A stretch of 64,000 bases of DNA from a virus (lineage: Duplodnaviria > Heunggongvirae > Uroviricota > Caudoviricetes). Location: the IMG/VR virus record IMGVR_UViG_2693429668_000006; one strand, written 5' to 3'. Under the pieces are notes generated by a model. It was not told the origin of the DNA. It worked only from the letters and a program-made list of their open reading frames with translations, and searched no databases. The position numbers and the translations under genes are program-made. Of this stretch, positions 4,053-63,253 are shown piece after piece. Each line of letters begins with the position of its first letter. Position 1 is the first letter of the stretch.

Positions 4053-4073
4053 GATAGGTAAGTATATACCTAT
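4053..4073 (-). promoter_or_regulatory. class-A palindromic motif GATAGGTAAGTATATACCTAT
   Basis: recurrent motif family (13 copies) just upstream of minus-strand genes. Confidence 0.45.
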
Positions 4074-4225
4074 TTTTGCATTTGATTTTATGTCTGGCAA
4101 TCAAATAAAACGCGCCAGAAATGCAAACGAGAAGCTCTCTGGCGCGTTTTTGTGGTGCTGGGTATGTGATTGGCTTACCCAGTACTATAAAGCTCTCTAT
4201 GGGCTTTATTTTAAGTAGGGGAACG

Positions 4226-5035
4226 TCATCCAATAGTGTACTCCGCGACAAACTTCTTAACGATCGGTGATTCTTCGTTCAATGTTAGATTTCCACCGTC
4301 TCTAACGGCAATTCCTGTCGCTGGAAATACAGCCATCATTTGCCCAGCCTGAGTTGACGCAGTGTTAAGCGGATACGGTTTTTCTGGATTGCTCATTAAA
4401 GCAATCTTAATACTATTACTTGTAGCCTTCTTTTCTGTGAGAAGGTGTCTCATGGAAATTACCGTGTAAACACTAATATCTGGACCTCCGCTAAACCAAT
4501 TAAGAAGGTTTAATATCTTATCCTTTGCTTTGACAGGCGCGTTATCGTAAGCGTCTAAGAAAATATCTTTTTCTAAGCCCGCTTTATTGAAAAACGAATC
4601 ATCTTTATCACTTAAAGTAAAACGAGGACCTCTTGCAGTACGCGCTTTTTTATTTGTATTGCTATCATTTGACTGTTGAACTTTTAATTCATCATTAACC
4701 TCAACACACTCTTCAACCTCAATAAATCCCAATTGTTCTGGCTCGTTTTCGGCAGCTTCAACACTTTCAGCGTTAATTACGTTTATAGGCTCATGCGCTA
4801 ACTCCAACTCATTTAAAGCAGAGCTGAAATCACCTGCTTTTTCTTCATTGAACAGTTCTTCGGCAACATCATCAGAACTCATGGCTACGCCAGCATCTAG
4901 GCCGAGCAGCAGATCGTCAATATCATCAGTATTTTCAACCTGTGCAGCTTTTTTTACTGGTTCATCAAGTGATTGCAACATGGCTGTCAGCTCGTCCAGA
5001 TCATCATTTGTCATTACATTTTCAACCGAACTCAT
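4226..5035 (-). CDS. acidic hypothetical protein (269 aa)
   Basis: ORF track; Asp/Glu-rich N-terminal half. Confidence 0.5.
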   Translation of the reverse strand: MSSVENVMTNDDLDELTAMLQSLDEPVKKAAQVENTDDIDDLLLGLDAGVAMSSDDVAEELFNEEKAGDFSSALNELELAHEPINVINAESVEAAENEPEQLGFIEVEECVEVNDELKVQQSNDSNTNKKARTARGPRFTLSDKDDSFFNKAGLEKDIFLDAYDNAPVKAKDKILNLLNWFSGGPDISVYTVISMRHLLTEKKATSNSIKIALMSNPEKPYPLNTASTQAGQMMAVFPATGIAVRDGGNLTLNEESPIVKKFVAEYTIG

Positions 5036-5193
5036 GTAAGTCTCCTTCTGTTTGGTTACATTTGCGTTTCGATGGCTGCATTTTGACTAAACCTATCAGG
5101 CGGAAAAGTATTAAATACAGGCAGAAAATGATTGAAAGGCGACTGTTCTTTAAAAAAAAGCCTACTTTAAACTTTTTAAAGTAGGCTTTTGTT

Positions 5194-5751
5194 TTACACA
5201 ATTTCAGAGGGTAATTTAAAAAATCCGTACTTATTACGTGCCTTAAAGAAGCATTGCATCATTAAGTTTGTGTCATATAAGGCACTATGTGCTTTGGCAT
5301 GATCGTATATAAAGCCAAGAGAGAAGGCCAACTCTTCAAGGCGGGGACGTTTACCGTCTTCTGTGGCCCACAATCCCGATAACATAGTATCTATAACAGG
5401 AACTTCTGGCAGTCTTACTCCATACCCTGAAAACTCGTGTCGAATAAATGGTATATCAAATGCTTCGCCGTTATGAGCAACCCACACACTACATGCCCCC
5501 ATATAAGCGCCAATTTCGCTGGCATGATTTGACAACAAAGGTTCAGCTGCGAGCTGTTCCAATGAAATGCCATGAACGGCTTGAGCTTTCGGATCTATGT
5601 TTCTGCGAGGGTTAAAACGCATCTCCAGACTATCAATATGTCTCTGTGTCTCCAGTTCATAGCGGGTAATTGCGATTTCAATAATTTTATGACCAGCAAG
5701 GAAATCCAGTCCCGTAGACTCGATATCGATGCCTGCAACAATCGTTGTCAT
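5194..5751 (-). CDS. DEDDh 3-prime-5-prime exonuclease (DnaQ-like)
   Basis: Exo I GIDIESTGL, Exo II HNGEAFDIPF, Exo III HSALYDT motifs. Confidence 0.7.
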   Translation of the reverse strand: MTTIVAGIDIESTGLDFLAGHKIIEIAITRYELETQRHIDSLEMRFNPRRNIDPKAQAVHGISLEQLAAEPLLSNHASEIGAYMGACSVWVAHNGEAFDIPFIRHEFSGYGVRLPEVPVIDTMLSGLWATEDGKRPRLEELAFSLGFIYDHAKAHSALYDTNLMMQCFFKARNKYGFFKLPSEIV

Positions 5752-5760
5752 CAGAACTCC

Positions 5761-6180
5761 TTACAACTTCTTAGCGCCCTTAAGTAGTGCGCTACGTACA
5801 AATTGAGCCGCTTTTTTCAAAGTTTCTTCACTGGTTTCACAGACAATCGGATCTTTCCACTTACCTGACGCAGTGTTGAGAATATTGATTTGGTTGCTAT
5901 CCAGACAAACAGAGATATAAAGCACCGTGCCACCAGCCAGCATCAAATGCATAGGAAACAGAGGCTTTTTACTGCCTTCACTGAACTGAGACATGGCGAT
6001 GTTAATGGCTTCACCTACTTGTGCGCCAACAAGCCCCTGCGCAGTTTCGAATATGGCACGAATAGCCAGACGAGCCTCTCGATCGCTCATAAGCGACCGG
6101 GAATGTTCGTCCGCTACACGAATCAAAGCCTCTGTTGTTTTCCGATCCAGTTCATCTTCAAGCAACATTTCACTAAACAT
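5761..6180 (-). CDS. hypothetical protein (139 aa)
   Basis: ORF track. Confidence 0.45.
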   Translation of the reverse strand: MFSEMLLEDELDRKTTEALIRVADEHSRSLMSDREARLAIRAIFETAQGLVGAQVGEAINIAMSQFSEGSKKPLFPMHLMLAGGTVLYISVCLDSNQINILNTASGKWKDPIVCETSEETLKKAAQFVRSALLKGAKKL

Positions 6181-6241
6181 TTTTTATCCTTAACCCATTT
6201 TGAGAGTTTTATTGTCGCAATGTCGAAGAGGCGAACAATTT

Positions 6242-6886
6242 CTAATGAACGGTTACTCGGCCACAGAACCGGTTTTCTATCTTTTCTACAGCGTTATCTA
6301 GCATTCTCATCACTGATCTGGCTCTTGCTTCAACCGTGCGATATCGGTTGGAAACGACGAAGGTTTGCAGATCTCCCCTTTGCGGATGCAGGTGAATTTT
6401 TGTCAGTTCCCCGCACATCAACGCATCAATACGAGCGACATACAGACGGTCTAATGATGCTCGTTGTGATCGCAAGTAATCTCGCTCTGAGAGAGCGACC
6501 CCCGGGCGTAGGCCAGCAATGGCGTTAAAGTTTGAAATAGCAGTTTTGTGGCAAAACTTTTCGATATCGAGGGCTAACTCAATACACCGATCTTCATTTG
6601 TATGGCCGACCAAATCCAACGTGTAGGCCATAACATCAGCAGGTGTGCGATCGATAACAAAGCCTTCAACACCACGTGTAAGTAGCTCTATATGCTTTGC
6701 TATTTCCATTTGAATCTGAAGCCGCTCATATAGAGGCATAGACTCACCTACTCGAACACCGAGGCGGCTCATCAAACTTCCGACACCAGCATCCACGTAA
6801 GGGATTCCGTAATGTTTGTCGATATATTTAGCCAGGGTTGTTTTCCCACTGCCCTGAGCACCAGTGATCCCAATCCGGTAATCCAT
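6242..6886 (-). CDS. P-loop nucleotide kinase-like protein (possible dNMP kinase)
   Basis: Walker A GAQGSGKTT near N-terminus; sits in nucleotide-metabolism block. Confidence 0.5.
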   Translation of the reverse strand: MDYRIGITGAQGSGKTTLAKYIDKHYGIPYVDAGVGSLMSRLGVRVGESMPLYERLQIQMEIAKHIELLTRGVEGFVIDRTPADVMAYTLDLVGHTNEDRCIELALDIEKFCHKTAISNFNAIAGLRPGVALSERDYLRSQRASLDRLYVARIDALMCGELTKIHLHPQRGDLQTFVVSNRYRTVEARARSVMRMLDNAVEKIENRFCGRVTVH

Positions 6887-7362
6887 TACGACCTTCTGTA
6901 TACGATCTGCGAAAAGCCAGGCTCTTCCTCGCTGGCTCGTTGGGTATAAGCTGTTTCAACAGGCACAAAGCCTAAGTTACGCATCATGCTTGCCGGGAAG
7001 AATGCATCGGCGTTTGGTACATCAACGCCGATGTGGGAGAGCCAAATCTCTTCAACATGCGGCATGAATAGCGAGTAAATTTGTTCCCCGCCAATCACCC
7101 ACACAGGCTCTGGTAATCGCAACACATCATCCACACCAGCAGGGTAGAATCCATTTGGTACAAAGCCATGAGAGCGCGTCAAAACGAGGTTATGACGCTC
7201 TGGAAGAGGGCGTTTGAGACTTTCCATCGTTTTACGCCCCATAACGACAGTGGCGTTTTTGGTGAGTCTCTTAAATAGCTTCAGATCGGTAGAACAACGC
7301 CAGGGCAGTTCGTTCGCTATGCCGATCTCATAGTTACGGCCAACAGCAGCGATCATCTTCAT
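6886..7362 (-). CDS. folA: dihydrofolate reductase
   Basis: collinear with E. coli DHFR (IAAVGRN...LPW..DL..FK..T....VVMGRKT..S..RPLP.R.N.VLTR...VIGG..IY). Confidence 0.85.
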   Translation of the reverse strand: MKMIAAVGRNYEIGIANELPWRCSTDLKLFKRLTKNATVVMGRKTMESLKRPLPERHNLVLTRSHGFVPNGFYPAGVDDVLRLPEPVWVIGGEQIYSLFMPHVEEIWLSHIGVDVPNADAFFPASMMRNLGFVPVETAYTQRASEEEPGFSQIVYRRS

Positions 7363-7820
7363 TTGCTCACCTCATAGATGACCGGTCGATGGTGAGAGTC
7401 GGCTAAAGCGGCACGGAGTCGAGGATCGTGCACCAGCGCAGCGATAAGCAGATCGCCTTTATGCTCCGCTAATGTGCGCTTAATATGCTTCTCATAACTG
7501 GTGCCATTCGGTACGAGATGAAGCCAGTCATAATCAACGCCAAAATCTTTCAGCCATCGTTTAGTTGGCGCTTCAAGAGTTTCAGAGCGGCTACTGATAA
7601 GCACCACTTCAGCCCCTGAGCGAGCAAAACCACGCAACATACGGCTGGTGGGGAAAATGAGTTCATCACCGGCAATGAGCTGGCCTGCATCCGCGTCAGA
7701 TACTGATTTACGATGGCTGGCATTTGCCAGCACACCTTCAATTTCGCATAAGACATACATACCTCTTGCCATATCACACCGCCACTGGAACCTTGATCCA
7801 CGGTAGAGGGTCATAGCCAA
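7359..7820 (-). CDS. hypothetical protein; possible HAD-like fold (true start likely internal Met)
   Basis: ORF track; weak HAD-like motif spacing; not confirmed. Confidence 0.35.
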   Translation of the reverse strand: MAMTLYRGSRFQWRCDMARGMYVLCEIEGVLANASHRKSVSDADAGQLIAGDELIFPTSRMLRGFARSGAEVVLISSRSETLEAPTKRWLKDFGVDYDWLHLVPNGTSYEKHIKRTLAEHKGDLLIAALVHDPRLRAALADSHHRPVIYEVSK

Positions 7821-8877
7821 GAATTAAAACCTCGTCCCATTTGAAATCATCCAACTCTGACCATTCATGAGGGAAAATAACGACCGGATCTGAATGCTCT
7901 GGAGCCTGTCGTTTCATTAGCTCACACACACCTTCCATGTGGTTGTTGTACAAATGCACGTCAAAGCCAAAATGCACAAATGCACCGGCCATGTGACCCG
8001 TAATCTTCGCGAGAAAATGAGTGAGAATGCCATAGCCAGCAATATTGAATGGCATACCAACAAAAGTGTCTACGCTACGCTGTACGAGGCAGGAGTTGAG
8101 GATGCGTTTGGGGATTCCAAGTTCATCCAGTTCAGCTTCAGTAACACTGCCGTCCATCTCCAGATCGTATAGCATCTTGGTGTAGATAGACTCGTAACCG
8201 AGGCGACTGTGTTGAAGACCAATGTCAGTTGCCATCGTTAAACGGGTTTCAAAATCCAGCTCACGACTCCACAAAGAGAAGACAAAGTGGCAAGGTGGCA
8301 GTTTCATATCCTCAAGCTCGCCTACGTTCCATGCGTTAAGCATGATGCGACGATCGGTAGGGTTCGTGCGCAGTGTATCGACAATACGCTGTAGCTGATC
8401 GATTTCACGGGACAGCACTACGCGATCTTCACTGATACCCAGGTATCCCTCGACTTTGTACCCGCGTTCACGGAAAGTAGCGATCTTGCTCAGATATTCA
8501 CTATGGCTCACGATGCGGGTATCTTCCCATCGACGCCACTGCTTACCGTAAACCGGCCCCAAATCGCCATTCTCATCGGCCCATGCATCCCAAATCTTAA
8601 CGCCGTTATCCTTGAGAAATTGGATGTTGCCCGTGCCTTTCAGATACCACTCAAGTTCGACAAGTAGTGGCTTAAGATTTACCGCCTTTCCAGAAATAAG
8701 CGGCACAGTCCCACCAGTAAGCATGTAGTAAGAGGGAACGTAGCAGGTGCTTAAAGTACCAGTGCCTGTGCGATCATCAGCCTGCACGCCGCTTTTAAGC
8801 ACCGTCTCAATAACTTTTGCATACGATGCGTTTGTTACCTGACCGTTCGTATGCTCTCGATTCAAAAGGAGTGACAC
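7774..8877 (-). CDS. thyA: thymidylate synthase (GTG start, ~100-aa insertion relative to E. coli ThyA)
   Basis: DRTGTGT, GDLGPVYGKQWR, LPPCH active-site motifs; GAGG RBS before GTG at 8877. Confidence 0.85.
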   Translation of the reverse strand: MSLLLNREHTNGQVTNASYAKVIETVLKSGVQADDRTGTGTLSTCYVPSYYMLTGGTVPLISGKAVNLKPLLVELEWYLKGTGNIQFLKDNGVKIWDAWADENGDLGPVYGKQWRRWEDTRIVSHSEYLSKIATFRERGYKVEGYLGISEDRVVLSREIDQLQRIVDTLRTNPTDRRIMLNAWNVGELEDMKLPPCHFVFSLWSRELDFETRLTMATDIGLQHSRLGYESIYTKMLYDLEMDGSVTEAELDELGIPKRILNSCLVQRSVDTFVGMPFNIAGYGILTHFLAKITGHMAGAFVHFGFDVHLYNNHMEGVCELMKRQAPEHSDPVVIFPHEWSELDDFKWDEVLILGYDPLPWIKVPVAV

Positions 8878-8890
8878 AAAAACCTCACAA

Positions 8891-8913
8891 AGATAAGTAA
8901 TTACTTATTCATC
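8891..8913 (-). promoter_or_regulatory. class-A palindromic motif AGATAAGTAATTACTTATTCATC
   Basis: immediately upstream of thyA RBS. Confidence 0.45.
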
Positions 8914-8954
8914 GTGTGAGTTTACATTCATTGAGAGAACAAGACCAGACAGAT

Positions 8955-8980
8955 AAAAAAATGGTGGCCATAGGCCACCA
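8955..8980 (-). terminator. rho-independent terminator (minus strand)
   Basis: hairpin TGGTGGCC-ATA-GGCCACCA followed on minus strand by T7 run. Confidence 0.6.
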
Positions 8981-9047
8981 AAACGAATAGTCATTCCAGA
9001 GTTTTATTACGCATGTTAAATATACACAGATAGATAACTACCTACAA

Positions 9048-9917
9048 TTATTTTTTGATCATTCCGTACATTGCTGAGGCTTTAGCTTGCTCAACAAAGG
9101 AGGATAAATCGACATCACTATAGGTTGGAGACTTCAGAATCTTTCCATCGGAAATTCGAAAACCGATCATCTTATCGGTGCCATCAGCATGGCGGAATCC
9201 CAGATCTGAAGAGTCGTATTTGCAGTTGGCCACAGCCTGGCGACGTTCCTCAACATCAGCAGGCCATAATTTTGTCATGTTAGACCGATGAATTTCGCCA
9301 ACCAGCTCGACGACATTGATACCGAGGAAATCAGCCAGTCGATAAGTCATCATGCACGCCACATAGATTTTGTTCATTACACGGCGCAGTTCCTGAATCA
9401 GCTCAGAATCCTTAACAGTCTTCTTCTCAAGTTTATCTGCCAGCTCTTCGAGCATACATGACGCCTCACGAGCTTCCTGAAATGGCATTGCCATATCATC
9501 GAAAACAGTGTTACCGGGCACAAAAATTGTCTGCATAAAGCGATCAATGCTCTGTTCCTGCGTGTAATAGGTCATGCCGGTAGAAATACCACCTTTGATG
9601 GCGACCATCGTACCAACACCAACGTATAAAAAGTCGGCCATTGCATCCAGCAGTTGCTCAATATCCCCATTCATTGCGGCTGGAATACCTTCCACTACAG
9701 CTTCTTCATGAATCAGGCTTGCACGGAGACGAAGCAGCTCTGGTGTCGGCATAACGCGTCTCGGATGCTGGAAGAGTTCATGAAACTGATCGACCATCTT
9801 GTAAATACTTTCAGTAGCTACACCATGACCTTCATGCAACTCATATGGTTCTGGCTTAAATCCAATGAGTCGATCGGTGGCAAGTTTCAGGTGGTCAGTC
9901 AGTTTGGTAAAGTTCAT
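9048..9917 (-). CDS. hypothetical protein (289 aa), function unresolved
   Basis: ATG at 9917 (MNFTKL...) with RBS; longer track ORF overlaps nrdB and is rejected. Confidence 0.5.
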   Translation of the reverse strand: MNFTKLTDHLKLATDRLIGFKPEPYELHEGHGVATESIYKMVDQFHELFQHPRRVMPTPELLRLRASLIHEEAVVEGIPAAMNGDIEQLLDAMADFLYVGVGTMVAIKGGISTGMTYYTQEQSIDRFMQTIFVPGNTVFDDMAMPFQEAREASCMLEELADKLEKKTVKDSELIQELRRVMNKIYVACMMTYRLADFLGINVVELVGEIHRSNMTKLWPADVEERRQAVANCKYDSSDLGFRHADGTDKMIGFRISDGKILKSPTYSDVDLSSFVEQAKASAMYGMIKK

Positions 9918-9994
9918 GCTAGTTTTGTTCCTTCTTAATTCTTGTGATCCATTGTGGCCCAGCGTTGCCAGGCCACATAATGCTTTGTATCGGT

Positions 9995-11137
9995 TTACAG
10001 GTCTGCAAACTGGCTTAGAGAAGCCTTGTCCACGGTAGAATCGATCTGACCTACCAGATATGTGCTTTGCTCTGCCTCTTGTGGTGCAATTTGCAGTGTG
10101 TCGGTTAACAACCACTTGTTCATCCAGACCAGCGGATCTGTGGTAACTTCTGGAAATAAAGCCTTCAGGCCAAGACGATTCATAGCCAGATTGGTGCGGT
10201 ATTTTACATAGGTCTTCAGAATATCCGCGTTTAAACCAATCATCGAACCGTCTTTGAAGAGATAGTCTGCCCAGTTCATTTCTTGTTCGGCGACTGATTT
10301 CATGGTGTCGTAAATGACGTTTTCTTCATCAGCAGCAATCTCTTTCCACAATAAACCTTCGCGACCGGTACGCATGAAGCGGATCATGCGTTCAGTTCCT
10401 TCGCAATGCAGAGCTTCATCACGGGCAATAAAGCGCATAATTTTGGTGTTACCCTCAAGCAACTTCCGTTCGCCAAAGGCAAACGTACATGCAAAACTTA
10501 CATAGAAACGGATCGCCTCAAGCGCATTAATGGACACCAACGTGCGGAAAAGCTGACGGTGCAAAGGGTATGGCTCCCAGCCATATTCATTTACGTACAG
10601 ACGTTCAAACTCTTTCTCACCTAACGACTGGCGCTCGCAGGTCATCCTATAAAGCCTGTCATATTCAGCAGAGATACTGATCGCTCGGTTGATGATTTCT
10701 TCATCCGTAACAATACCGTCAAAAACAATACTCGGATCGTCCACCATGCCACGAATAATGTGGGTGTAGCTGCGGCTATGGATAGTCTCAGAGAAAGACC
10801 ATGTTTCAACCCACGTTTCCAGTTCAGGAATAGAGATAAGCGGCAGCAGCGTTGCATTTGGGCTACGTCCCTGAACTGAATCGAGTAACGTTTGATAACG
10901 GAGATTGCTCAGAAAAATGTGACGTTCGTGGTCCCGCAGCTTCGTGTTGAAGTCGATACGATCGCTCGAAATATCAACTTCTTCCGGCCGCCAGAAGAAA
11001 GACAATTGACGTTCAATCAACTTTTCAAAATCACGGTATTTTTGCTGATCGTAACGTGCCACGTTGACAGATTGTCCGAGGAACATAGGCTCTTTGGTTG
11101 CATCATTAGCACCCAAACGGAACGTTGAATATGACAT
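9995..11137 (-). CDS. nrdB: ribonucleotide reductase class Ia beta subunit
   Basis: di-iron/tyrosyl radical region [19 protein letters not shown]; RNR small-subunit length. Confidence 0.85.
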
Positions 11138-11165
11138 GTGTTTTTCCTTTTTCTTTTTTGGTGCG

Positions 11166-11187
11166 TTTAAACAAGTTGTTATCTTAT
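11166..11187 (-). promoter_or_regulatory. class-B palindromic motif TTTAAACAAGTTGTTATCTTAT (plus partial second copy 11191-11200)
   Basis: upstream of nrdB start. Confidence 0.4.
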
Positions 11188-11243
11188 GTGTTTAAACAAG
11201 GCTTACAAATCAAAGAGAAGGTGGGGATATCCCCCACCATATG

Positions 11244-13559
11244 TCAGATTTTGCAGGCTCCGTCGCACTCATCTTCTGGCTCGACGGCTACAGCTTGCGT
11301 CAGTGGATTCTGCGGTTCGTCGTCATCACGCTTTCCTGCCCCATCTCTGGTGTTGTGGTAGTAAAGCGTTTTAACTCCCATCTTGTAGGCGAGAAGCAAA
11401 TCTGACAGTAGCGTCATCATTGGGACTTTATCGCCTTCAAAGCGAGAAGGGTCATAGTTGGTATTGGCTGAAATAGCCTGGTCAAAGAACTTCTGGATGA
11501 TCGCCACCTTTGTCAGATAGCCGCGGTTGTCCGGCATATCCCACAGGTATTCATACTGTTCCTTCAGTTTTTCAAACTCAGGCACGACCATCTTAACGAT
11601 GCCGTCCTTAGAAGATTTCACCGACACCGGGCCACGAGGCGGTTCGATGCCGTTGGTGGAATTAGTGATCTGGCTGGAAGTCTCGCATGGCATTTGTGCC
11701 GTCAGTGTGGAGTTGCGAAGGCCGTATTTTGCAATACGTTCACGCAGTTCTTCCCACGGCATCTTTAACTCAAAGTTGGTTTCGCCACTTTCGTCTAATG
11801 AAGAACGGTAATGGTCGATCGGCAACTGACCAATTGCGTACTTGGTCTGCTCAAACCAGTCACACTCACCTTTTGCTTCAGCAAGTCGGCAGCTGGCATC
11901 AAGAAGGTAATACTGGATAGCTTCGAACGTTTCATGCACCAGTTTATTGCCAGCGGTATCAGAATAACGAACGCCATTCTTTGCCAGGTAATAAGCAAAG
12001 TTGGTTACACCAATTCCCAAGCTACGACGAGCTTTGGCAGGCACTTCGGCTGCCTCCATCGGATAGTCTTGATAATCCAGTAACGAATCCAGTGCAGCAA
12101 CGGCATAGAACGCCACCTCTTTAAGAGACTCCAGTGAACGGATGGCTCCGAGGTTAAAAGCGGATAAAGTGCATAGCGCGATCTCACCGTTCGGGTCGTC
12201 GGTAAATGCCAGTGGACGAGTGGGTAGAGTGATCTCCATGCACAGGTTTGACTGGCGGACAGGTGCAAGAGCAGGAATGAAAGCGCCATGCTCATTAATA
12301 TGATCGACGTTCGCAATATAAATTCGGCCCGTGGACGCTCGTTCCTGCATCAGAGATGAGAACAGCTCAATGGCAGGTACTGACTTCTTGCGAATTGAAT
12401 CATCGGCTTCGTATTTATGGTACAGCTTTTCAAACAGATCCTGGTCTGTGAAGAAGGCTTCGTACATATCAGGCACATCATGCGGGCTGAACAGAGTGAT
12501 GTTCTCGCTTCTGACGAGTCGACGGTACATTAGACGGTTACTCATGACGCCGTAATCAAGATGGCGAACGCGGTTTTCATCAATACCACGGTTATTTTTC
12601 ACCACCAGCAGACTTTCAACTTCAAGATGCCAGATCGGGTAAAACGCTGTTGCTGCGCCACCACGAACACCACCTTGCGAGCAAGATTTAACAGCAGTCT
12701 GGAAATGCTTCAGGAATGGAATAACTCCGGTATGGGTGGCTTCACCATTGCGGATCTCACTGCCCAGCGCACGGATACGGCCAAAACCAATACCAATTCC
12801 AGCACGACGTGAAACGTAGTCGATAATTGCGGCTGAAGCTGCACTAATCCCTTTCAGACTATCGCCAGACTCAATCAGCACACAACTGGAGAACTGACGG
12901 GTTGGAGTACGGACGCCAGCCATGATTGGTGTGGGCAGAGACAGTTTGAACGTACTTGTAACGTCATAGAAACCTTTGACCATCTCCATACGTGTTTTGC
13001 CCGCGCAGTCGTCTTCCCAATTCTGGAACAGACACATGCCCACCAGCATATAGATATGTTGCGGGCCTTCGTGAATCTCACCAGTAACACGGTTTTGAAC
13101 GAGGTATTTGCTTTGCAACTGCACCGTAGCTGCATAGCCAAAAAGATCGTCACGTTTCGGCTTAATGTAATTGCCGAGTTCTTCGATCTCTTCAAACGAA
13201 TAATGTGTCAGCAAATCCTTGTCATAAACGCCCTTGTTAACGTTCTTGACAATGTGTTGGTAGAAGTTCGGATAGTCGTAACGACCGAAGGCATCTTTGC
13301 GGATTTTAAAAATGTTCAGGCGGGCAGCCACCTGTGAGTAATTTGGTGCTTCTGGTGAGATCAAATCAGCGGCAGATTTAACCAAAGCCTCATGCAACTG
13401 GCTGGTGGTAATCCCATCAAAAATGCTGGCCGCAGCTCCCATTGCTACAGCGGATGCGCTTACACCACGAATGCCTTCTACGCCATACATTACGACGCGG
13501 TTGTATTTTTCTTCGGATAACGGCTCTGTTTGGCCGTTACGTTTTACGATGCTTATCAT
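11244..13559 (-). CDS. nrdA: ribonucleotide reductase class Ia alpha subunit
   Basis: 771 aa; C-terminal redox cysteine pair (...ECDGACKI); adjacent to nrdB. Confidence 0.9.
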   Translation of the reverse strand: MISIVKRNGQTEPLSEEKYNRVVMYGVEGIRGVSASAVAMGAAASIFDGITTSQLHEALVKSAADLISPEAPNYSQVAARLNIFKIRKDAFGRYDYPNFYQHIVKNVNKGVYDKDLLTHYSFEEIEELGNYIKPKRDDLFGYAATVQLQSKYLVQNRVTGEIHEGPQHIYMLVGMCLFQNWEDDCAGKTRMEMVKGFYDVTSTFKLSLPTPIMAGVRTPTRQFSSCVLIESGDSLKGISAASAAIIDYVSRRAGIGIGFGRIRALGSEIRNGEATHTGVIPFLKHFQTAVKSCSQGGVRGGAATAFYPIWHLEVESLLVVKNNRGIDENRVRHLDYGVMSNRLMYRRLVRSENITLFSPHDVPDMYEAFFTDQDLFEKLYHKYEADDSIRKKSVPAIELFSSLMQERASTGRIYIANVDHINEHGAFIPALAPVRQSNLCMEITLPTRPLAFTDDPNGEIALCTLSAFNLGAIRSLESLKEVAFYAVAALDSLLDYQDYPMEAAEVPAKARRSLGIGVTNFAYYLAKNGVRYSDTAGNKLVHETFEAIQYYLLDASCRLAEAKGECDWFEQTKYAIGQLPIDHYRSSLDESGETNFELKMPWEELRERIAKYGLRNSTLTAQMPCETSSQITNSTNGIEPPRGPVSVKSSKDGIVKMVVPEFEKLKEQYEYLWDMPDNRGYLTKVAIIQKFFDQAISANTNYDPSRFEGDKVPMMTLLSDLLLAYKMGVKTLYYHNTRDGAGKRDDDEPQNPLTQAVAVEPEDECDGACKI

Positions 13560-13605
13560 GTATCACCAAATAAAGAGGGCCACTAAATATAGTGGCTCAT
13601 GTTAA

Positions 13606-13625
13606 TAGATAAGTACTTACCTATC
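13606..13625 (-). promoter_or_regulatory. class-A palindromic motif TAGATAAGTACTTACCTATC
   Basis: upstream of nrdA. Confidence 0.45.
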
Positions 13626-13632
13626 AATGAAA

Positions 13633-14202: not shown

Positions 14203-14211
14203 ATAGTCTCC

Positions 14212-16861: not shown

Positions 16862-17090
16862 ATAACACCTCTGATACCGTGTGTTAGCTTTTGGCCTTCT
16901 TTCAATCTGAACTCCGTATGCGCCGGGAAGGATCTGCGCCTCAATACGCCTTTTCTTGTTAACCTTCCAAGATAAAACGCTACGGGATTTCCTTGTGGCG
17001 GGGAGGGCTTGTGAAACATCACCGTCTGGCCTCGTTCAAGTCTTTTCATCGTGATGGCAAAGTCTCGAAAGCTCCCATAACGACTTTGCT

Positions 17091-18176: not shown

Positions 18177-18288
18177 GTATTTTTCCTTTGTGGTTATTTT
18201 GATACAAATTCTAAGAGCAATGAGGAGGTAAACAACTATGCATAACGGTATGTTAGGAATGAAACGAGCGCCTTAATATACAAAATTT

Positions 18289-18312
18289 ATAAGTAAGTAT
18301 ATACCTATTTAT
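18289..18312 (-). promoter_or_regulatory. class-A palindromic motif ATAAGTAAGTATATACCTATTTATC
   Basis: upstream of sbcD. Confidence 0.4.
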
Positions 18313-18430
18313 CGTGGCGCAACTTTGCTTGTCTGTATGACTAAAAATAAGACAGGATCACTGTAGAACGCTATGAGAGCTATTTTGAGGGGGCGTAGAT
18401 TCTATCTACGCCAATATACGATCTGGAGGG

Positions 18431-19376: not shown

Positions 19377-19396
19377 TGAATGACAAAGGTGTCCAC

Positions 19397-21794: not shown

Positions 21795-21833
21795 GATAGG
21801 TAGATACTAACTTATATAAATTTTACTGTAAAC

Positions 21834-23745: not shown

Positions 23746-23768
23746 ATAATAAGTAAGTACTTATATAT
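23746..23768 (-). promoter_or_regulatory. class-A palindromic motif AATAATAAGTAAGTACTTATATAT
   Basis: upstream of 23716 start. Confidence 0.45.
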
Positions 23769-28532: not shown

Positions 28533-28560
28533 GATAGATCAGTACTTACTTATTATCTAT
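28533..28560 (-). promoter_or_regulatory. class-A palindromic motif GATAGATCAGTACTTACTTATTATCTAT
   Basis: upstream of SSB gene. Confidence 0.45.
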
Positions 28561-35942: not shown

Positions 35943-35964
35943 CTATGGTAAGTAGTTACTTATC
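35943..35964 (-). promoter_or_regulatory. class-A palindromic motif CTATGGTAAGTAGTTACTTATC
   Basis: upstream of AAA+ gene. Confidence 0.45.
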
Positions 35965-38400: not shown

Positions 38401-38651
38401 TCAATCAATCCATTCTAACTTATACTATGGTAAGGAATACTACTAAAATCTATATCAATACTGAATACATTCATATCATATGCAAGTTGATTTTCTTACC
38501 TGTTTTGGGCTAATTTTTCTCCGTGCAATGGCCTTTAACCGGTCTTTTAAGTGCCTATCGAAAAAAATGATAATAGCTTTACAACCCTAACCTTTGATGT
38601 AATATCGGTAAGCACTTACCAGAGAGAATTGAACGCGCAAAGGTTGTAACC

Positions 38652-39038
38652 ATGTCTGATAACAAGATTGAATTTATAGAAAGTCGCTACGCTGCTTTTA
38701 TCGCAGGGTTGATTGAATCCTCACCTATGAGCCAGGCCCAGATAGCCAAAACAATTGGGTATAAAAACGCCAACAACCTTTCTTTAATTAAAAGCGGCAA
38801 AATTCCTTTGCCTATCGATAAGGTTCGTCCGCTGGCGCTGGCACTGGGCATTGAGCCAAGTCGTCTTATGATGATGGTGCTGGAAGAACGCCAACCCGAA
38901 CTCGCAGCATTTTTATACAAAGAAGGCACTGCTCCTCTTAACGAGGACGAAAAACAGGTTCTTGCTGCATATAACGAGCGATTCGGTAAAGAGAAAGGCG
39001 CATCACAAAAGGTTGTTGAGGCCATAAAGTCTCTATGA
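38652..39038 (+). CDS. HTH DNA-binding regulator (XRE-like)
   Basis: helix-turn-helix segment SQAQIAKTIGYKNANNLSLIKSGK. Confidence 0.5.
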   Translation: MSDNKIEFIESRYAAFIAGLIESSPMSQAQIAKTIGYKNANNLSLIKSGKIPLPIDKVRPLALALGIEPSRLMMMVLEERQPELAAFLYKEGTAPLNEDEKQVLAAYNERFGKEKGASQKVVEAIKSL

Positions 39039-40648: not shown

Positions 40649-40670
40649 GATAGGTAAGTAAAAACCTATT
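40649..40670 (-). promoter_or_regulatory. class-A palindromic motif GATAGGTAAGTAAAAACCTATT
   Basis: upstream of glutaredoxin gene. Confidence 0.45.
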
Positions 40671-43616: not shown

Positions 43617-43620
43617 AATT

Positions 43621-43707: not shown

Positions 43708-43712
43708 TAAAT

Positions 43713-44545: not shown

Positions 44546-44567
44546 GATAAGTAAGTAAATACTTATC
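44546..44567 (-). promoter_or_regulatory. class-A palindromic motif GATAAGTAAGTAAATACTTATC
   Basis: upstream (minus-strand sense) of the structured noncoding region and tRNA cluster. Confidence 0.4.
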
Positions 44568-48068: not shown

Positions 48069-48089
48069 TTAAGTATGTATCTACTTATC
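48069..48089 (-). promoter_or_regulatory. class-A palindromic motif TTAAGTATGTATCTACTTATC
   Basis: upstream of gene starting at 48027. Confidence 0.4.
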
Positions 48090-53437: not shown

Positions 53438-53459
53438 GGTAGGTAGTTACTTACTTATC
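53438..53459 (-). promoter_or_regulatory. class-A palindromic motif GGTAGGTAGTTACTTACTTATC
   Basis: immediately upstream of 53426 start. Confidence 0.45.
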
Positions 53460-53607: not shown

Positions 53608-55314
53608 TTAATGATTGAGTATTTTATTAACACGCAGCTTATTAAGTGTTGATTTTGAAGCAACTTCCTCCAAAGCTTCTATTGCTTTATCAGTGATGCT
53701 CTTCTGTTCGTCTGTCGGGTGTTGCATACCCTTGAACTTGAGCATAGTCTCTTCTACTAAATTCAAAGCATCCTGATCACAGGATAATATCCAGTTTACG
53801 TAATCATCTTTAGAAAAACTGTTAAGAATATTCACATCACTATGGTTAAATCTTCCACCAGCTATTTTTTTTATAATTTTATCTAAGTTATAGTCATCTG
53901 GATTTCTATCTTTCAATTTTTTTTCAATTCTGAAACCTAATTCTTCATTTCCGAAGATCTCTACTCGCAAAGAATTAAATGTAGCATACGCATTGTCTTT
54001 ATTAACAAAAGCATCTGCATATGCCTCTATAATATTATTACAATCTCTATCCAATTTGATTAGGACATTTATTAAACCTACGAACTGTCCAATTGGTATA
54101 CGCAACAGACTATCGTTAATTACGCGCTCAATTTGAAAAATAAACTCTGATTCATTATCTTTAAAAGAGTTTCTAAAAACATCCCAAATTTTATAAACCT
54201 CACATAAAACCCTATTATCTCTATATTGTTCATTTTTTTCTTTTATTATATTTAGAATATTGCTTTCAGAAGACACATAACCGTTCTTAAGGTAAAAATC
54301 TATATCATCATCGAAAGCACTTTCTGCTCGTTCATAAATAATATCAAGGCTATTAACAAATGAATATACAGAGTTAACTTCTTCCTTTTCATCTTTATCA
54401 TCTAACATATAGTCGAATGCATGTATATTTTTGATTGACTCCTTAAATGAAGCATAATCAACGCTAGGAACACCAAAATAGTAAACCACTGAAAATAAGA
54501 CCAATCTATTAATAAAACTTTCTCTAACCTTATCCTCTGCTAACTTTAGCACATCTCTAAATATAACTAGAGATGATTTTATTTTATTTAATATTCTAAT
54601 GTTTTTGATGTTTAAATCATTTGCTAGGTTTTTTAACAAAAGAAAATCAGGGTCAGTCTCATAAAAAACTTTTCTTAAGTTTTTCTCAGGCGTGGGATCG
54701 TATTTTATTTCCACATCAATTATTTTTTCTCTATACTCTAAAAACTGTTGTTGTGCAGTTTCTTCATGTAAGTTATCTTCATTTAATATTAGAACAACCT
54801 TGCAATTTTTTCTTCTTGCCAACTCATCAATTACCCCCATAATCTCTTTAATTTCTAGCGCACTACCTTTTCGTTCAATATCATCAATGCAAACCAAATA
54901 ATTATTAACAAATTTATACTCAAGAGATGACAGCAGATTATCAGTTTTGAACCCAAAAAAATCGTTCTTTCCAAAATGTATTAAAAATTTTGACAAGGAG
55001 TTGTATTTCAACCATCCCCAAAACCCATTTCTATAACGAATCATAGTTCGATCCGTTTCAGATAAAATCAGTTCTTTATATTTCTTTTCATTAATTGGTG
55101 TGGCACAATGATAAAGAGCTTTTTTAATGTCTCCAATAGAATTTATTCCAAACAAAGAAACATATGAATATGCATTAAAATCTAATTTTTTAGAATGTTT
55201 AGTATAAAAGCTATTCCAATAATGCGTTTTACCTACTCCCCAATTTCCTTTTATGACAGCAACCCGATGATCTGAGTCCAAAAAATTTTTTAAAAATACT
55301 TCTATCGATTCCAT
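53608..55314 (-). CDS. KAP-family-like P-loop NTPase (568 aa), AT-rich accessory gene
   Basis: Walker A GNWGVGKT (GxWGxGK[ST]), Walker B LVCIDDIERK (hhhhDD[LI][DE]R); strongly AT-rich. Confidence 0.55.
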   Translation of the reverse strand: MESIEVFLKNFLDSDHRVAVIKGNWGVGKTHYWNSFYTKHSKKLDFNAYSYVSLFGINSIGDIKKALYHCATPINEKKYKELILSETDRTMIRYRNGFWGWLKYNSLSKFLIHFGKNDFFGFKTDNLLSSLEYKFVNNYLVCIDDIERKGSALEIKEIMGVIDELARRKNCKVVLILNEDNLHEETAQQQFLEYREKIIDVEIKYDPTPEKNLRKVFYETDPDFLLLKNLANDLNIKNIRILNKIKSSLVIFRDVLKLAEDKVRESFINRLVLFSVVYYFGVPSVDYASFKESIKNIHAFDYMLDDKDEKEEVNSVYSFVNSLDIIYERAESAFDDDIDFYLKNGYVSSESNILNIIKEKNEQYRDNRVLCEVYKIWDVFRNSFKDNESEFIFQIERVINDSLLRIPIGQFVGLINVLIKLDRDCNNIIEAYADAFVNKDNAYATFNSLRVEIFGNEELGFRIEKKLKDRNPDDYNLDKIIKKIAGGRFNHSDVNILNSFSKDDYVNWILSCDQDALNLVEETMLKFKGMQHPTDEQKSITDKAIEALEEVASKSTLNKLRVNKILNH

Positions 55315-55365
55315 TGGTGTCTATCCTTCAACTCATATATTGGGCGTAACAAACGCCCAATATAA

Positions 55366-55725
55366 TCACCCTTTCTTCATCAACTCGCGTTTAATTTCAT
55401 CGGTACGCATCGTGACATCGGCAGCTGTGATCGCCTCGTTAAGTTTCACGATGTCCTCGATTTCCTGCGGTGTCTTCTCCGCAAGATGGAAAATAGCAGC
55501 ACGAATCACGTCAGAACGAGTGAACTTCTCGAAGCGAGGGATGAACTTCATCATCTCCAGCAGTTCGAAGTATTCGTCCTCCAGTGACATTGTGCGGCTT
55601 TTAATTTTCTCTTTGCCACGAGTCGGGCGTCCCTGTGGTCTGACTGGTTGGCGCAAAGGAGTTGTGTTCTTAGCCGGTGCATCAGGCTCTTTGCGCTTTG
55701 CTAGGTCACCCATTTTCATGGACAT
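55366..55725 (-). CDS. small partition partner protein (ParG/ParB-like candidate, 119 aa)
   Basis: translationally coupled downstream of parA; basic N-terminus. Confidence 0.4.
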   Translation of the reverse strand: MSMKMGDLAKRKEPDAPAKNTTPLRQPVRPQGRPTRGKEKIKSRTMSLEDEYFELLEMMKFIPRFEKFTRSDVIRAAIFHLAEKTPQEIEDIVKLNEAITAADVTMRTDEIKRELMKKG

Positions 55726-56393
55726 TATTCTTCTTCCTCCAGACTCAACAGATAATCTACAAATTCTTCAAACTCGGCTTCCGCCTTTTTGTCGCGCTCG
55801 CTACCGGTCATTTCAAAGATAGAACGACCAGACTCTTCCGCATCATCATAGACGTTGCGGTTATATAGATTGACTGGCGCAGACTCGATGCCAAACGTCT
55901 CAACAATCTCTTTAGCCGCCAGAATGCGAGACACTTGTGATGGCAAAGCCGGGCACTGGTTCATGACCGCGCGGACCTTCACTTTATCGTTTACATTACG
56001 AACATTGTCGATAATAGGATCGATGTCACGCAGAGATTTCAAATCACGACGCTTAGGACGAAGCGGGATAATGATAACGTCGGCCATCAGCATCGCTTGT
56101 CGCTGAATTTCGGAGTCAAAGCCACCAGCATCTACCACTACAAACTCAGCTCTACCCTGAAGCGATTTTAGGTGCTTAATGATGTCATCCTGAACGTATG
56201 CAAAAGGAATCAGCTCAAGGTCTTCGTTCTGTCGACGGTCTTCACACCAGCTTGTTGTCGTGCGCTGAATATCTATATCAGTGATATAAACCTTCTTCTT
56301 CTTTTTGACTTTCAGGCAAACGGCAATTTGCTGGGCAACGGTGGATTTGCCAGGCCCGCCCTTTGTGCCGCCAACCACAAAGATCTTGGTCAT
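55725..56393 (-). CDS. parA: ParA-family partition ATPase
   Basis: deviant Walker A VVGGTKGGPGKST; 222 aa small-ParA size. Confidence 0.8.
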   Translation of the reverse strand: MTKIFVVGGTKGGPGKSTVAQQIAVCLKVKKKKKVYITDIDIQRTTTSWCEDRRQNEDLELIPFAYVQDDIIKHLKSLQGRAEFVVVDAGGFDSEIQRQAMLMADVIIIPLRPKRRDLKSLRDIDPIIDNVRNVNDKVKVRAVMNQCPALPSQVSRILAAKEIVETFGIESAPVNLYNRNVYDDAEESGRSIFEMTGSERDKKAEAEFEEFVDYLLSLEEEE

Positions 56394-57930: not shown

Positions 57931-57931
57931 A

Positions 57932-59022: not shown

Positions 59023-59047
59023 TGTAGGTATATACTTACCTACCTAT
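59023..59047 (-). promoter_or_regulatory. class-A palindromic motif TGTAGGTATATACTTACCTACCTAT
   Basis: upstream of lysis cassette. Confidence 0.45.
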
Positions 59048-62100: not shown

Positions 62101-63190
62101 CTTTCGCGTTCGTTTCGGATGTCTTCGCTGCGGAAGCAGACCTCGCTGCTGCGCTAGCCTGTTCAGTGGCTTCGCCAGCCTTCGTTGTGGCTGTTGAAGC
62201 AGACGATGCGGCACTTTCTGCCGATTTTCCGGCGGCGGTGGCACTGGCTGAGGCCTGCCCGGCACTTGTTGACGCGGCACTGGCAGACGACGCAGCCGCT
62301 GTTTTTGAGCCTGCCGCAGCTGAGGCACTCTGTGCTGCTGCCGTCTCAGAAGACTTAGCGTTCGTCTCGGACGTTTTTGCCGCCTTCGCGGAATTGCCTG
62401 CCGCTGTTGCCGAGGAGGCTGCACTACTGGCGCTCAAGGATGCGTTCGTTTCTGATGATTTCGCTGCCTCTTTTGAGGCCGCCGCATCCCGGGCTGAGGT
62501 GGCAGCTTCTGACGCTTTCGTGGTCGCGGTGGATGCAGAAGTGGCTGCTGATTGTTGTGACGCTGCGGCATTCGTTTCAGATTTTTTCGCAGCAGTTGCA
62601 CTCGCACTTGCGGCACTTTGTGAGGATGCCGCAGCGGATGCACTTTGAGACGCTTGAGAGGCTTTTTCTCCAGCGGTATTGGCGCTTTCTGCTGCTGCGG
62701 CAGCACTGGCCGCTGCCTCACGAGCTTTGTCGCCAGCAGCATCAATCGCGTCAGTGTTATTTTTATACCACTCAACGTTTTCGTTGTGCTCGTTGACGAT
62801 CTGCATTAGCGGCTTAACGGTTACTTCTGTACCGTCTTCACGCTCGATTGTCACCTCATCCAGAGCAGTCAACCAACTGCGCATAGACTTGGAATCAGCC
62901 GACATACGCGACATTAGTGCTGTAAAGCGCGCGCTAAACTGTGTTAAGTCGCCTTCATAGGTCGTAATGATTCGGCACGGAACCTCAGACTGAGTTTCGC
63001 CGGTATAAGGTTCTGAGAGAACAATATTCGTATCGCTTATTACGCGCTTGATCTCATACAGCTTATTGTCGGGGCCAATGACGATCATCCCCGGCAACAC
63101 ACCATTAGCTGTTACGTTCCAGGCTGTCCCTGCCCCAACCAGAGTATTGCTACCCTGTGTAAATGTGATAGTACCTTCCCTGTACCACAT
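59165..63190 (-). CDS. tail fiber protein (1341 aa) with Ala/Ser-rich coiled region and T4 gp34/gp37-type fiber repeats
   Basis: ~200-aa Ala/Ser/Thr/Lys low-complexity segment; repeated GNASTATKLQTAR.I.GV.FDGSA.I.L units (>=5). Confidence 0.8.
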   Translation of the reverse strand: MWYREGTITFTQGSNTLVGAGTAWNVTANGVLPGMIVIGPDNKLYEIKRVISDTNIVLSEPYTGETQSEVPCRIITTYEGDLTQFSARFTALMSRMSADSKSMRSWLTALDEVTIEREDGTEVTVKPLMQIVNEHNENVEWYKNNTDAIDAAGDKAREAAASAAAAAESANTAGEKASQASQSASAAASSQSAASASATAAKKSETNAAASQQSAATSASTATTKASEAATSARDAAASKEAAKSSETNASLSASSAASSATAAGNSAKAAKTSETNAKSSETAAAQSASAAAGSKTAAASSASAASTSAGQASASATAAGKSAESAASSASTATTKAGEATEQASAAARSASAAKTSETNAKASETSAESSKTAAASSASSAASSASSASASKDEATRQASAAKGSATTASTKATEAAGSATAASQSKTAAESAATRAEAAADRAEEIAGAVAMEDASLTTKGVVKLSSAVDSTSESLAATPKAVKAANDNANSRVPSNRKVNGKALTADITLTPKDIGTLNSVTMSFSGGAGWFKLATVTMPQASSIVYIALIGGAGYNVGSPHQAGISELVLRAGNGNPKGITGALWKRTAVGLTNFAWINTSGDTYDIYVEIGNYATRVNIHWDCTANATVSIYTSPTYSASKPSSVTDGVVYTMYSSHQKPTPSDIGALPTTGGTVSGPLSVTGGLTGSLNGNASTATKLQTARSIGGVVFDGSANINLPGVNTTGNQNTTGNAATATKLQTARTIGGVSFDGTANINLPGVNTTGNQNTTGNAATATKLQTARTINGVSFDGSANISLSPANIGCPASPTGWLTTGSNGGAITTAQLVTLLQNNGAFNTKSWIARCAWAYANSATIPNSETGCGVIPLAGAVIEVFNNGSSSNNYTIRITTATTASVSGALTNAEFIYVFNGTSYSPGWRRAYNTKNKPTAADVGALPLSGGALTGGLTSSGEIVSKYANGFRIAYGSFGFFIRNDGSNTYFMLTASGDTLGSWNGLRPITINNTSGAVSIGNGLNVTGGVNGSLNGNASTATKLQTARKISGVSFDGSADITLTAANVSAFARRATGTYADASGAVPWNAESGAYNVTRSGDSYIVANFYIGVGSCRTLQIRAHYKNGGLYYRSSRDGYGFEEDWTQIYTKKDSIPGVNADGNQNTTGNAATATKLQTARKIAGVAFDGSADITLTAANLNAYTKTEVTNLLSSYVKSSALPSMTVRTSSVSGGDMGMSLSAFISHLKSNGAFSKSYWIGFGDAMGFNAGSINNITGFGAVELAESIIEVFNLPNGDYTIRLTTSHKADYGGITNAILVYHYRSNRSPSGQWLKFAGTVGATSN

Positions 63191-63232
63191 GTTGAATATG
63201 CTCCTTGATTTGGCGGGTTATCCTTGCCCGCC

Positions 63233-63253
63233 ATTAAGTAAATACTTACCTAT
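63233..63253 (-). promoter_or_regulatory. class-A palindromic motif ATTAAGTAAATACTTACCTAT
   Basis: upstream of tail-fiber gene, followed by 5-prime-UTR hairpin and AAGGAG RBS. Confidence 0.45.

Follow-up and report, generated by a model that had tools for sequence, protein, structure and literature searches.

What recognizes a palindrome that stands in front of one gene after another along a phage genome, and what does its binding do there? The question is raised by a stretch of 64,000 nucleotides (nt) of the IMG/VR virus record IMGVR_UViG_2693429668_000006 (Caudoviricetes), hereafter called the window. A sequence-only reading of it had noticed a recurrent palindromic motif upstream of at least 13 minus-strand genes and had proposed that the motif is either a phage-specific promoter or a class of regulator-binding sites. 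The motif is real and non-random. Its copies are probably the dispersed operators of the master (lysogeny) repressor of a prophage, and the candidate for the protein that would bind and silence them is a small XRE-type helix-turn-helix protein encoded in the window.

The window aligns in reverse orientation with Escherichia phage Cyrano (pLF82 of E. coli LF82) at 97–99% identity in the aligned parts, and about 8–27% of it, varying by segment, has no Cyrano counterpart. Salmonella phage SSU5 and Klebsiella phage-plasmids are about 77% identical to it. These matches identify the window, on sequence grounds, as part of an SSU5-like phage-plasmid of E. coli. As annotated in the relatives, the lytic genes form a single co-directional array of about 85 kilobases (kb) comprising terminase, portal, capsid, tail, lysis, replication, recombination and nucleotide metabolism genes, and the accessory and maintenance genes are located on a separate arm of the genome. 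The minus strand carries the lytic genes of the window, and minus-strand open reading frames (ORFs) of at least 50 residues occupy 84% of it.

Alignment of the sites on the coding (minus) strand produces a perfect dyad of 20 base pairs (bp), ATARGTAAGTACTTACYTAT. The AAGTA/TACTT inverted repeat first described as common to all copies reflects a genuine palindrome, but the exact string AAGTA-NN-TACTT occurs in only 5 sites. The motif is better described as ATARGTA-N6-TACYTAT, a 20-bp palindrome with its centre near AGTACT. Because TA dinucleotides recur every 4 bp, the register is ambiguous by 4 nt. The exact core AAGTANNTACTT occurs 5 times compared with 0.02 expected from shuffles, and the 24-mer of the sequence-only reading occurs 4 times with at most 3 mismatches compared with 0.00. 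A symmetric position-specific scoring matrix (PSSM) detects 17 sites of at least 14 bits in the window compared with 0.2 in shuffles, a significance that is circular for the 15 seed sites. The same matrix recovers about 20 strong sites each in SSU5 and in Klebsiella phage pJN2-26. Weaker matches are found at window positions 9026 and 37275, and the window holds in total at least 15 good copies and 2–3 weak ones.

All of the 13 main and 2 "weaker" positions listed at first carry the motif, within 1–5 nt. The copy at 3012 is indeed weak (15.2 bits), but the one at 21795 is strong (24 bits), and the supposedly strong copy at 35943 is weak as well (16.7 bits). The list lacked the copies at 1837–1856 and 3391–3410 and a degenerate one at 38604–38623. 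Of the 17 sites, 14 have no overlap with the minus-strand ORFs, and the site at 3013 has almost none. The distance from the motif to the next start codon is 1–129 nt rather than the 15–90 nt given before, and is only 1–12 nt at several sites (21796, 4054, 8889 and 53439). The copies and their surroundings are listed in Table 1.

Cyrano, SSU5 and pJN2-26 each contain about 21–25 PSSM sites, about 20 of them strong. The motif is kept at about 23 syntenic positions in these three genomes, the flanks of the sites diverging and the genomes being only about 77% identical. One copy separates the large terminase gene from the portal gene, another falls within the 3′ end of the latter and a third follows the major capsid gene; further copies precede tail genes, the tail fibre gene and the holin gene. 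The motif also stands before genes of the helicase and ligase regions and before the tRNA, CobS-like, single-stranded DNA-binding protein (SSB), SbcD, nrdA, thyX and methylase genes, among others. The sequence-only reading had placed it before nucleotide-metabolism, replication, lysis and tail-fibre genes. Because it precedes early genes, namely those of replication and nucleotide metabolism, as well as late ones (portal, capsid, tail, holin), the motif marks no single temporal class. The accessory and plasmid-maintenance arm gives only weak matches (Cyrano 85–108 kb). Copies of the motif are likewise present in a 20-kb stretch of a contig of about 108 kb from Yersinia pestis. A distant syntenic relative, the Acinetobacter baumannii plasmid p107, has a palindrome of its own, ATCAGTCAGTACTGACTGAT, which is present in about 30 copies with the same architecture and in the same kinds of places.

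Table 1. Motif copies in the window and the candidate repressor gene (window coordinates; scores on the symmetric PSSM; promoter elements are predictions)
Feature	Coordinates	Strand	Score (bits)	Gene context	Adjoining elements and orthologues
Motif copy, missed by the sequence-only reading	1837..1856		23.5	Overlaps stop codon of RNase H-like gene; 129 nt upstream of gene starting at 1707	Orthologous copies in Cyrano, SSU5 and Klebsiella
Weak copy	3013..3032		15.2		Weak orthologues at Cyrano 78477, SSU5 78709 and Klebsiella 15673
Weak motif-like copy of uncertain membership, missed by the sequence-only reading	3391..3410		15.0		
Motif copy	4054..4073		28.8	11 nt upstream of adenine methyltransferase start (4042)	Overlaps predicted −10 and transcription start of TTGCCA-17-(TG)AAAAAT promoter (promoter-like match 4100-4072, minus), conserved in three genomes
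Motif copy	8889..8908		22.7	11 nt upstream of thyX GTG start (8877)	Ribosome-binding site directly after
Motif copy	13605..13624		29.3	RuvC-like gene stop codon before; nrdA 45 nt on	Terminator-like hairpin (13579-13596) after; spanned by TTGATA-17-TAACAT promoter-like match 13627-13599
Motif copy	18289..18308		28.2	112 nt upstream of SbcD-like gene	Conserved TGnnATAAT-type extended −10 box 6 nt after
Motif copy	21796..21815		24.0	1 nt upstream of ATG of small membrane-protein gene	Overlapped by conserved TTTACA-17-TAGTAT promoter-like element (matches 21832-21804 and 21820-21793)
Motif copy	23749..23768		24.7	After RecA-like gene; 32 nt upstream of gene starting at 23716	TTGAAA-17-TATTAT promoter-like match 23774-23746
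Motif copy	28534..28553		24.5	84 nt upstream of gp32-like SSB gene	Fills spacer of conserved TAGATA-17-TATCAT promoter-like element (match 28559-28531)
Weaker copy	35944..35963		16.7	58 nt upstream of CobS-like AAA ATPase gene	Weak orthologues in Cyrano, SSU5 and Klebsiella
Degenerate copy ATCGGTAAGCACTTACCAGA, missed by the sequence-only reading	38604..38623			28 nt upstream of repressor ATG	
XRE-type helix-turn-helix repressor gene, 128 residues (= CYRAN_45)	38652..39038	+		Candidate motif-binding protein	
Motif copy	40650..40669		24.5	57 nt upstream of glutaredoxin gene	TAATAT box 9 nt downstream
Motif copy	44547..44566		26.9	Precedes ultra-conserved noncoding block and tRNA cluster	TGTATAAGAT 6 nt after
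Motif copy	48069..48088		22.4	41 nt upstream of gene starting at 48027	Conserved extended −10-like box after it: GTAAGAAT in the window, TGTAAGAAT/TGTAATAAT in three relatives
Motif copy	53439..53458		24.6	12 nt upstream of ATG at 53426	Ribosome-binding site directly after; conserved TATCAT/TATGAT box about 12 nt upstream, which would put the motif in the initial transcribed region
Motif copy	59024..59043		24.4	62 nt upstream of holin gene	Conserved (TG)ATATAAAT box 15 nt downstream
Motif copy	63234..63253		27.2	Between the genes for tail protein J and the tail fibre, with the fibre gene 43 nt downstream	GC-rich hairpin follows

A palindrome could act in RNA as well as in DNA. Polycistronic transcripts could fold the motif into a stem-loop, with a function in RNase III processing, in mRNA stabilization or as a translational operator. 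The stem would have 8 bp and the loop 4 nt, the copies often stand immediately 5′ of a ribosome-binding site or follow closely on a stop codon, and the element encodes elsewhere a homologue of the RNA-binding repressor FljA (PF03614). However, the variation among 53 distinct sites shows no compensation. The variable symmetric positions 4 and 17 are independent of each other (Fisher p = 0.77), and their commonest state, A4/C17, which is a mismatch in RNA, is present in 15 of the 53. Pair 8/13 is paired in only 31 of them, and the loop and centre are conserved like the stem. Moreover, the Acinetobacter relative keeps the architecture of the motif although tblastn detects no FljA-like gene there. 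No U-tract follows the palindrome itself. An RNA hairpin is rejected as the selected feature on this missing covariation, base pairing not being maintained by compensatory changes, and the RNA reading as a whole is extremely improbable. Because the half-sites vary independently, they are better regarded as two DNA half-sites contacted by protein than as the arms of a selected stem, and a dyad-symmetric site with independently recognized half-sites is what operators of the XRE/cI type consist of.

Promoters of phage-encoded polymerases (T7, SP6 and N4 types) were also considered and rejected, because the site is symmetric, its spacing to the start codons varies from site to site, and the annotations of Cyrano, SSU5 and pJN2-26 list neither an RNA polymerase gene nor a sigma gene. 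A Pfam scan of 20 proteins of unknown or regulatory function found no polymerase, sigma factor or activator; many ORFs are still of unknown function.

The position of the motif relative to host promoters can be estimated from consensus matches. All promoters in this analysis are predictions from weak matches of this kind, and −10-like boxes were judged on three-genome alignments. Most sites are overlapped or abutted by predicted −10-like boxes or sigma-70-like matches, and some have no convincing promoter. In a generic sigma-70 scan, 6 of the 25 gene-strand matches fall on motif sites, compared with about 0.35 expected by a rough hand estimate, and they mark five distinct sites (4054, 13605, 21796 with two overlapping matches, 23749 and 28534). 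The conserved −10-like boxes begin at motif position −17, −3, 7, 18, 21, 29 or 34 depending on the site, so that the motif centre would lie at about −42, −30, −20, −9, +2 or +15 relative to the start of transcription. The commonest single register is a TATCAT or TATTAT hexamer at the right end of the motif (positions 18–23), which is seen at 7 of the 17 sites and makes the motif fill the promoter spacer. Extended −10 boxes of the TGTAAGAAT/TGTCATAAT type follow the motif after 4–6 nt at the sites ahead of the SbcD gene and of the tRNAs and at those behind the primase and DUF4942 genes, with the motif centre near −30. At the holin site the box follows after 15 nt, and the centre is near −42. 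At the small membrane-protein site, TAGTAT lies inside the motif with a conserved TTTACA at a distance of 17 bp. At the methylase site, TTGCCA-17-TGnAAAAAT is located immediately upstream and places the motif over the start point. In front of the gene that starts at 53426, and likewise at the terminase/portal site, a box lies about 12 nt upstream of the motif (TATCAT/TATGAT and TATTCT), which would then occupy roughly +6 to +25. Where the gene start is at most 12 nt from the motif, the conserved box is upstream of or inside the motif; where the gene is farther away, the box is at or after the right arm. A fixed spacing to the −10 box was rejected, the downstream TAnnnT profile being only modestly enriched and mirrored on the other side. 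Because the predicted register varies within the footprint of RNA polymerase, the sites resemble repressor operators, unlike promoter elements or activator sites.

The same geometry bears on another possibility: all lytic promoters could be turned on by a transcription activator, or a sigma-remodelling factor, that the phage encodes and that binds the motif, which would then be a phage-specific promoter class read by host RNA polymerase together with a phage protein. A candidate for such a factor would be a small winged-helix-like protein of 88 residues, which is encoded upstream of the small terminase gene and conserved in all four genomes. Consensus sigma-70-like sites are depleted in window 1–20000 (14 compared with 30.3 ± 6.0 in shuffles, the other two thirds of the window being near expectation), a good −35 element is missing at many sites, and the motif is at full strength in SSU5, which has no repressor gene. 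The −10-like hexamer at motif positions 18–23 and the four sites with an extended −10 at 4–6 nt would also suit an activator; an extended −10 with a motif centre near −30 resembles the MotA-dependent middle promoters of phage T4. An activator, however, would need a fixed register, yet the register runs from about −42 to +15, and several copies are followed within 1–12 nt by a ribosome-binding site or ATG, which leaves no room for a downstream −10. Promoters with an extended −10 or of the TTGATA, TTGCCA and TTTACA types should need no activator, one copy lies over the start of the repressor's own promoter, and the proteins scanned contain no sigma or activator domain. In the activator-dependent late promoters of the P1 Lpa, Mu C and P2 Ogr types the dyad is fixed to the −10, an arrangement that the motif does not show. 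An activator is therefore an unlikely owner of these sites.

The repressor reading is linked to a particular locus. The candidate protein scores below the curated cut-off for the Pfam family HTH_19 (E = 7.8e-4) and belongs to PHROG 8, "transcriptional regulator". Pfam detects no S24 peptidase domain in it, and its sequence has no match in the PDB. A single-sequence structural model (predicted local distance difference test, pLDDT, 75) shows a weak likeness to the all-helical N-terminal domain of lambda cI, to C-protein and to Stl-type repressors; only generic XRE folds were matched, none of them at E ≤ 0.001. The gene is convergent with an integrase gene, with an overlap of 6 nt, and divergent from an ORF of 70 residues. 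In the LF82 lysogen it is listed as expressed about 10-fold above the local background, and Cyrano is inducible by ciprofloxacin (PMC9928086). Because the protein has no S24 peptidase domain and resembles all-helical repressors, induction probably proceeds via an anti-repressor or interference, not via self-cleavage.

The degenerate copy ATCGGTAAGCACTTACCAGA in front of the repressor gene equals the consensus core GGTAAGTACTTACC at 13 of the 14 positions of its 14-bp core, and it abuts the −10 box of the predicted repressor promoter, TTTACA-16-TAATAT (38578–38605, plus strand). This variant copy, located 26–36 nt upstream of the repressor ATG, is conserved in every enterobacterial lineage examined (repressors 56–100% identical). 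A copy at the repressor's own promoter, in the immunity region, is a further property of XRE/cI-type operator sets. In p107, 3 degenerate copies of its own palindrome lie between the repressor gene and a divergent small ORF. The p107 repressor is 48% identical and has the recognition helix FKRPNV instead of the enterobacterial YKNANN or YKNPNI. The repressor of the K. pneumoniae CP125183 lineage is likewise 48% identical; this lineage keeps the NANN helix and the ATAAGTAA arms and has two sites at the repressor start. New arms (ATCAGTCA) are accompanied by a new helix in Acinetobacter, a correspondence that rests on only three lineage contrasts and that any phage protein would show by co-divergence.

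Homologues of the repressor occur on 865 PLSDB plasmids, nearly always beside an integrase gene, and these include plasmids of about 100 kb from Yersinia pestis and Salmonella. A scan of species-representative genomes for distant homologues found only six loci, four of them close enterobacterial ones, and a scan of viral contigs found only relatives of at least 56% identity. The distant homologue on the Thauera plasmid pTX1 was set aside as uninformative, this being a conjugative plasmid and not SSU5-like.

With the repressor locus taken into account, the proposal of a regulator-binding class is supported by the dyad, the independent half-sites, the syntenic conservation and the copy at the XRE repressor promoter. 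The proposal of a phage-specific promoter is not: it is at odds with the palindrome, with the missing annotation of a polymerase or sigma gene, with the variable register and with the presence of the motif ahead of early as well as late genes.

A good LexA box (CTGTATAAGTAAACAG) is located at window 40165–40180, about 29 nt upstream of the integrase start, and LexA boxes stand at the same place at Cyrano 41046 and at 88948 of Klebsiella pJN2-26; the count of one in the window compared with 0.91 expected is at chance level. SOS-driven antisense transcription into the repressor gene could be part of induction.

Plasmid maintenance offers another possible role, in which the motif would be a centromere-like or KorB-like site of one of two ParB-like proteins and would serve partition, plasmid-wide silencing or both. 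The palindrome is dispersed across a plasmid genome, as are the KorB operators of RK2 and the centromere sites of the phage-plasmid N15, and two proteins with a ParB_N domain are conserved in all four genomes. A copy is found just upstream of the parB-like gene both in Cyrano (105107, weak) and in Acinetobacter (69363, 1 mismatch). However, Pfam recognizes only the N-terminal domain and no helix-turn-helix in these proteins. The copies follow the gene starts of the lytic array and do not cluster around the partition genes, no strong copy is seen in the ParA gene region, and the degenerate copies clustered at the repressor locus would be left unexplained. This role is very unlikely.

We favour a repressor, and its proposed mechanism can be outlined as follows. 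A dimer of the XRE-type protein of 128 residues would bind the 20-bp palindrome, of which there are about 25–30 copies genome-wide, each in a short intergenic gap heading an early or late lytic transcription unit. The copies would lie within the promoter footprint of the host sigma-70 polymerase, over the −35, the spacer, or the −10 and start, or just past the start. The bound repressor would block initiation at the lytic transcription units, so that the virus would stay silent as a plasmid. Where a stop codon precedes the site and a ribosome-binding site or terminator follows it, the repressor may prevent read-through. The weaker variant copy over the repressor's own promoter would provide negative autoregulation.

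In its strongest form, one small XRE repressor would silence the 85-kb lytic genome directly through about 27 palindromes, with some sites acting as roadblocks or as nucleation points for bridging. The sites meant here are those that would not be promoter operators, namely those in stop/terminator gaps, the one at the 3′ end of the portal gene and those butted against ribosome-binding sites. This form of the proposal is tentative and rather improbable. If it is true, the SSU5 family, of which plasmids of the pMT1 and pHCM2 kinds are members, would have in common a Gram-negative, symmetric-site counterpart of the mycobacteriophage stoperators.

Several observations weigh against repression as the function of the motif. 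The −10-like TAYnAT formed at 7 of the 17 sites by the right end of the motif and the 3 nt that follow has a fixed position, which could reflect a promoter role. The order stop codon, motif, intrinsic terminator is seen at 3–4 conserved sites (after the capsid gene, at nrdA and after tail M) and is kept in Acinetobacter, and simple promoter occlusion does not explain it. The terminator loops at these sites contain −10-like TATATT or TATAC. Possibly such a site is a promoter with its −10 in the terminator loop, transcripts starting inside the descending arm; alternatively, it may have a roadblock or bridging role. The repressor gene's own copy is degenerate, scoring 7 bits on the 20-bp PSSM. 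All four genomes also conserve other candidates for DNA binding, namely the winged-helix-like protein and the two ParB-like proteins mentioned above. Finally, SSU5 keeps the motif at full strength without a repressor gene, and this retention needs a recent deletion, a second function or a second binder.

The block of integrase gene, repressor gene and 70-residue ORF that lies between the tRNA-Asn and CobT-like genes in Cyrano, the window and pJN2-26 is missing from SSU5. Its absence agrees with the behaviour of SSU5 as a plaque-forming lytic phage and is what would be expected if SSU5 were a lytic derivative with the repressor deleted. Because SSU5 grows lytically without the repressor, the repressor is not needed for lytic transcription.

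Two noncoding stretches adjoin motif copies. The leader between the copy at 1837 and the gene starting at 1707 (window 1700–1836, minus strand) has a conserved structure of several hairpins, for which RNAalifold computes −40 kcal/mol from three genomes; at 6 of its pairs both sides have changed with pairing kept. The leader has no Rfam match at the gathering threshold; it may be a cis-regulatory RNA. The second, a block at about 44390–44520 on the minus strand, lies just downstream of the copy at 44547 and its TGTATAAGAT box and upstream of the tRNA cluster. It differs hardly at all between the E. coli, Salmonella and Klebsiella elements, whose identity is otherwise about 77%, contains no notable ORF and has no convincing Rfam match; it is a candidate small RNA gene. 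The tRNA cluster itself comprises 4 genes (Asn, Tyr, Thr and Ser) at 43160–43787 on the minus strand, compared with 3 listed in the Cyrano record and 1 in that of SSU5.

Other observations concern the gene content of the element. At 30254–30672 on the plus strand, the cspA thermoregulator RNA family is matched over its full length (185.7 bits), which suggests a cold-shock protein gene carried as cargo on the strand opposite the lytic genes. GC content falls to 35% at 40001–42000 and 54001–56000. These stretches hold ORFs of unknown function, one of 442 residues on the plus strand (PHROG 18168) and one of 568 residues (PHROG 4740), and only 73% of the part of the window around them has a Cyrano counterpart. 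If they are among the parts without one, they are probably accessory cargo. The RecA-like ORF at 23808–26147 (minus strand) has 779 residues here and in Cyrano, compared with 358 in SSU5 and Klebsiella pJN2-26, which suggests an intein or other insertion. Outside the window, the homologue of FljA, the phase-1 flagellin repressor, is full-length at Cyrano 100780–101301 (PF03614, E = 1e-80) and is kept in SSU5 and Klebsiella.

SSU5-like phage-plasmids are widespread in Enterobacterales and Acinetobacter, and phage-plasmids, this family included, are reported in part of the literature to harbour genes for antibiotic resistance. We found no description of the SSU5/pHCM2-type lysogeny switch, its operators or the motif string in the literature covered, which did not include one possibly relevant preprint of 2026. 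The operator sequence together with the candidate repressor offers a handle for predicting immunity groups, for engineering and curing these elements and for annotating their transcription units. Such a pair would also help to explain why SSU5, which has no repressor, is lytic.

Repeated operators of this kind have precedents in several systems. The P1 plasmid-prophage is silenced by its C1 repressor through many scattered operators at operon heads and at the c1 gene itself, and the arrangement described here is alike in having one repressor, many dispersed operators at operon heads and one at the repressor's own gene. P1 operators, however, are asymmetric 17-bp sites (ATTGCTCTAATAAATTT), C1 is not of the XRE type, and the late genes of P1 are controlled indirectly via the activator Lpa. 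In contrast, the motif is a 20-bp palindrome of unrelated sequence with an XRE-type candidate, and it also precedes the portal, capsid, tail and holin genes. The 17-bp asymmetric consensus is not found in the motif, and no search for a C1 homologue was made. The stoperators bound by gp71 of mycobacteriophage L5 number about 30 per genome and are asymmetric, orientation-dependent 13-bp sites in short intergenic gaps of early and late co-directional genes. The tens of short-gap sites across early and late genes described here match them in number and placement, and for some, which have a stop codon on one side and a ribosome-binding site on the other, a roadblock is the only plausible role. Unlike stoperators, which are asymmetric and lie in one orientation, these 20-bp palindromes have no orientation that could matter, and a block of elongation is putative here.

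Lambda cI and Cro likewise bind dyad sites as helix-turn-helix dimers, with copies between the repressor gene and a divergent small gene, and the candidate repressor has its weak fold match there. Lambdoid operators, however, are confined to two clusters, the rest of the genome being controlled through antitermination cascades, whereas here single operators are spread over about 85 kb and the repressor has no S24 peptidase domain. KorB of the IncP plasmid RK2 exerts global repression from about a dozen copies of a short palindrome at variable distances from promoters. The motif shares this repetition across a plasmid and the variable distances, but KorB is a ParB-family protein with a helix-turn-helix of its own, and no link between a ParB-like protein and the motif was found here. 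In function, the P1 C1 network and the L5 stoperators seem the closest systems; the motif set would belong to neither family, because their sites are asymmetric and their proteins unrelated. The best-supported assignment on present comparisons is that these are dyad operators of an XRE/cI-type repressor, deployed unusually widely across the genome, late structural genes included.

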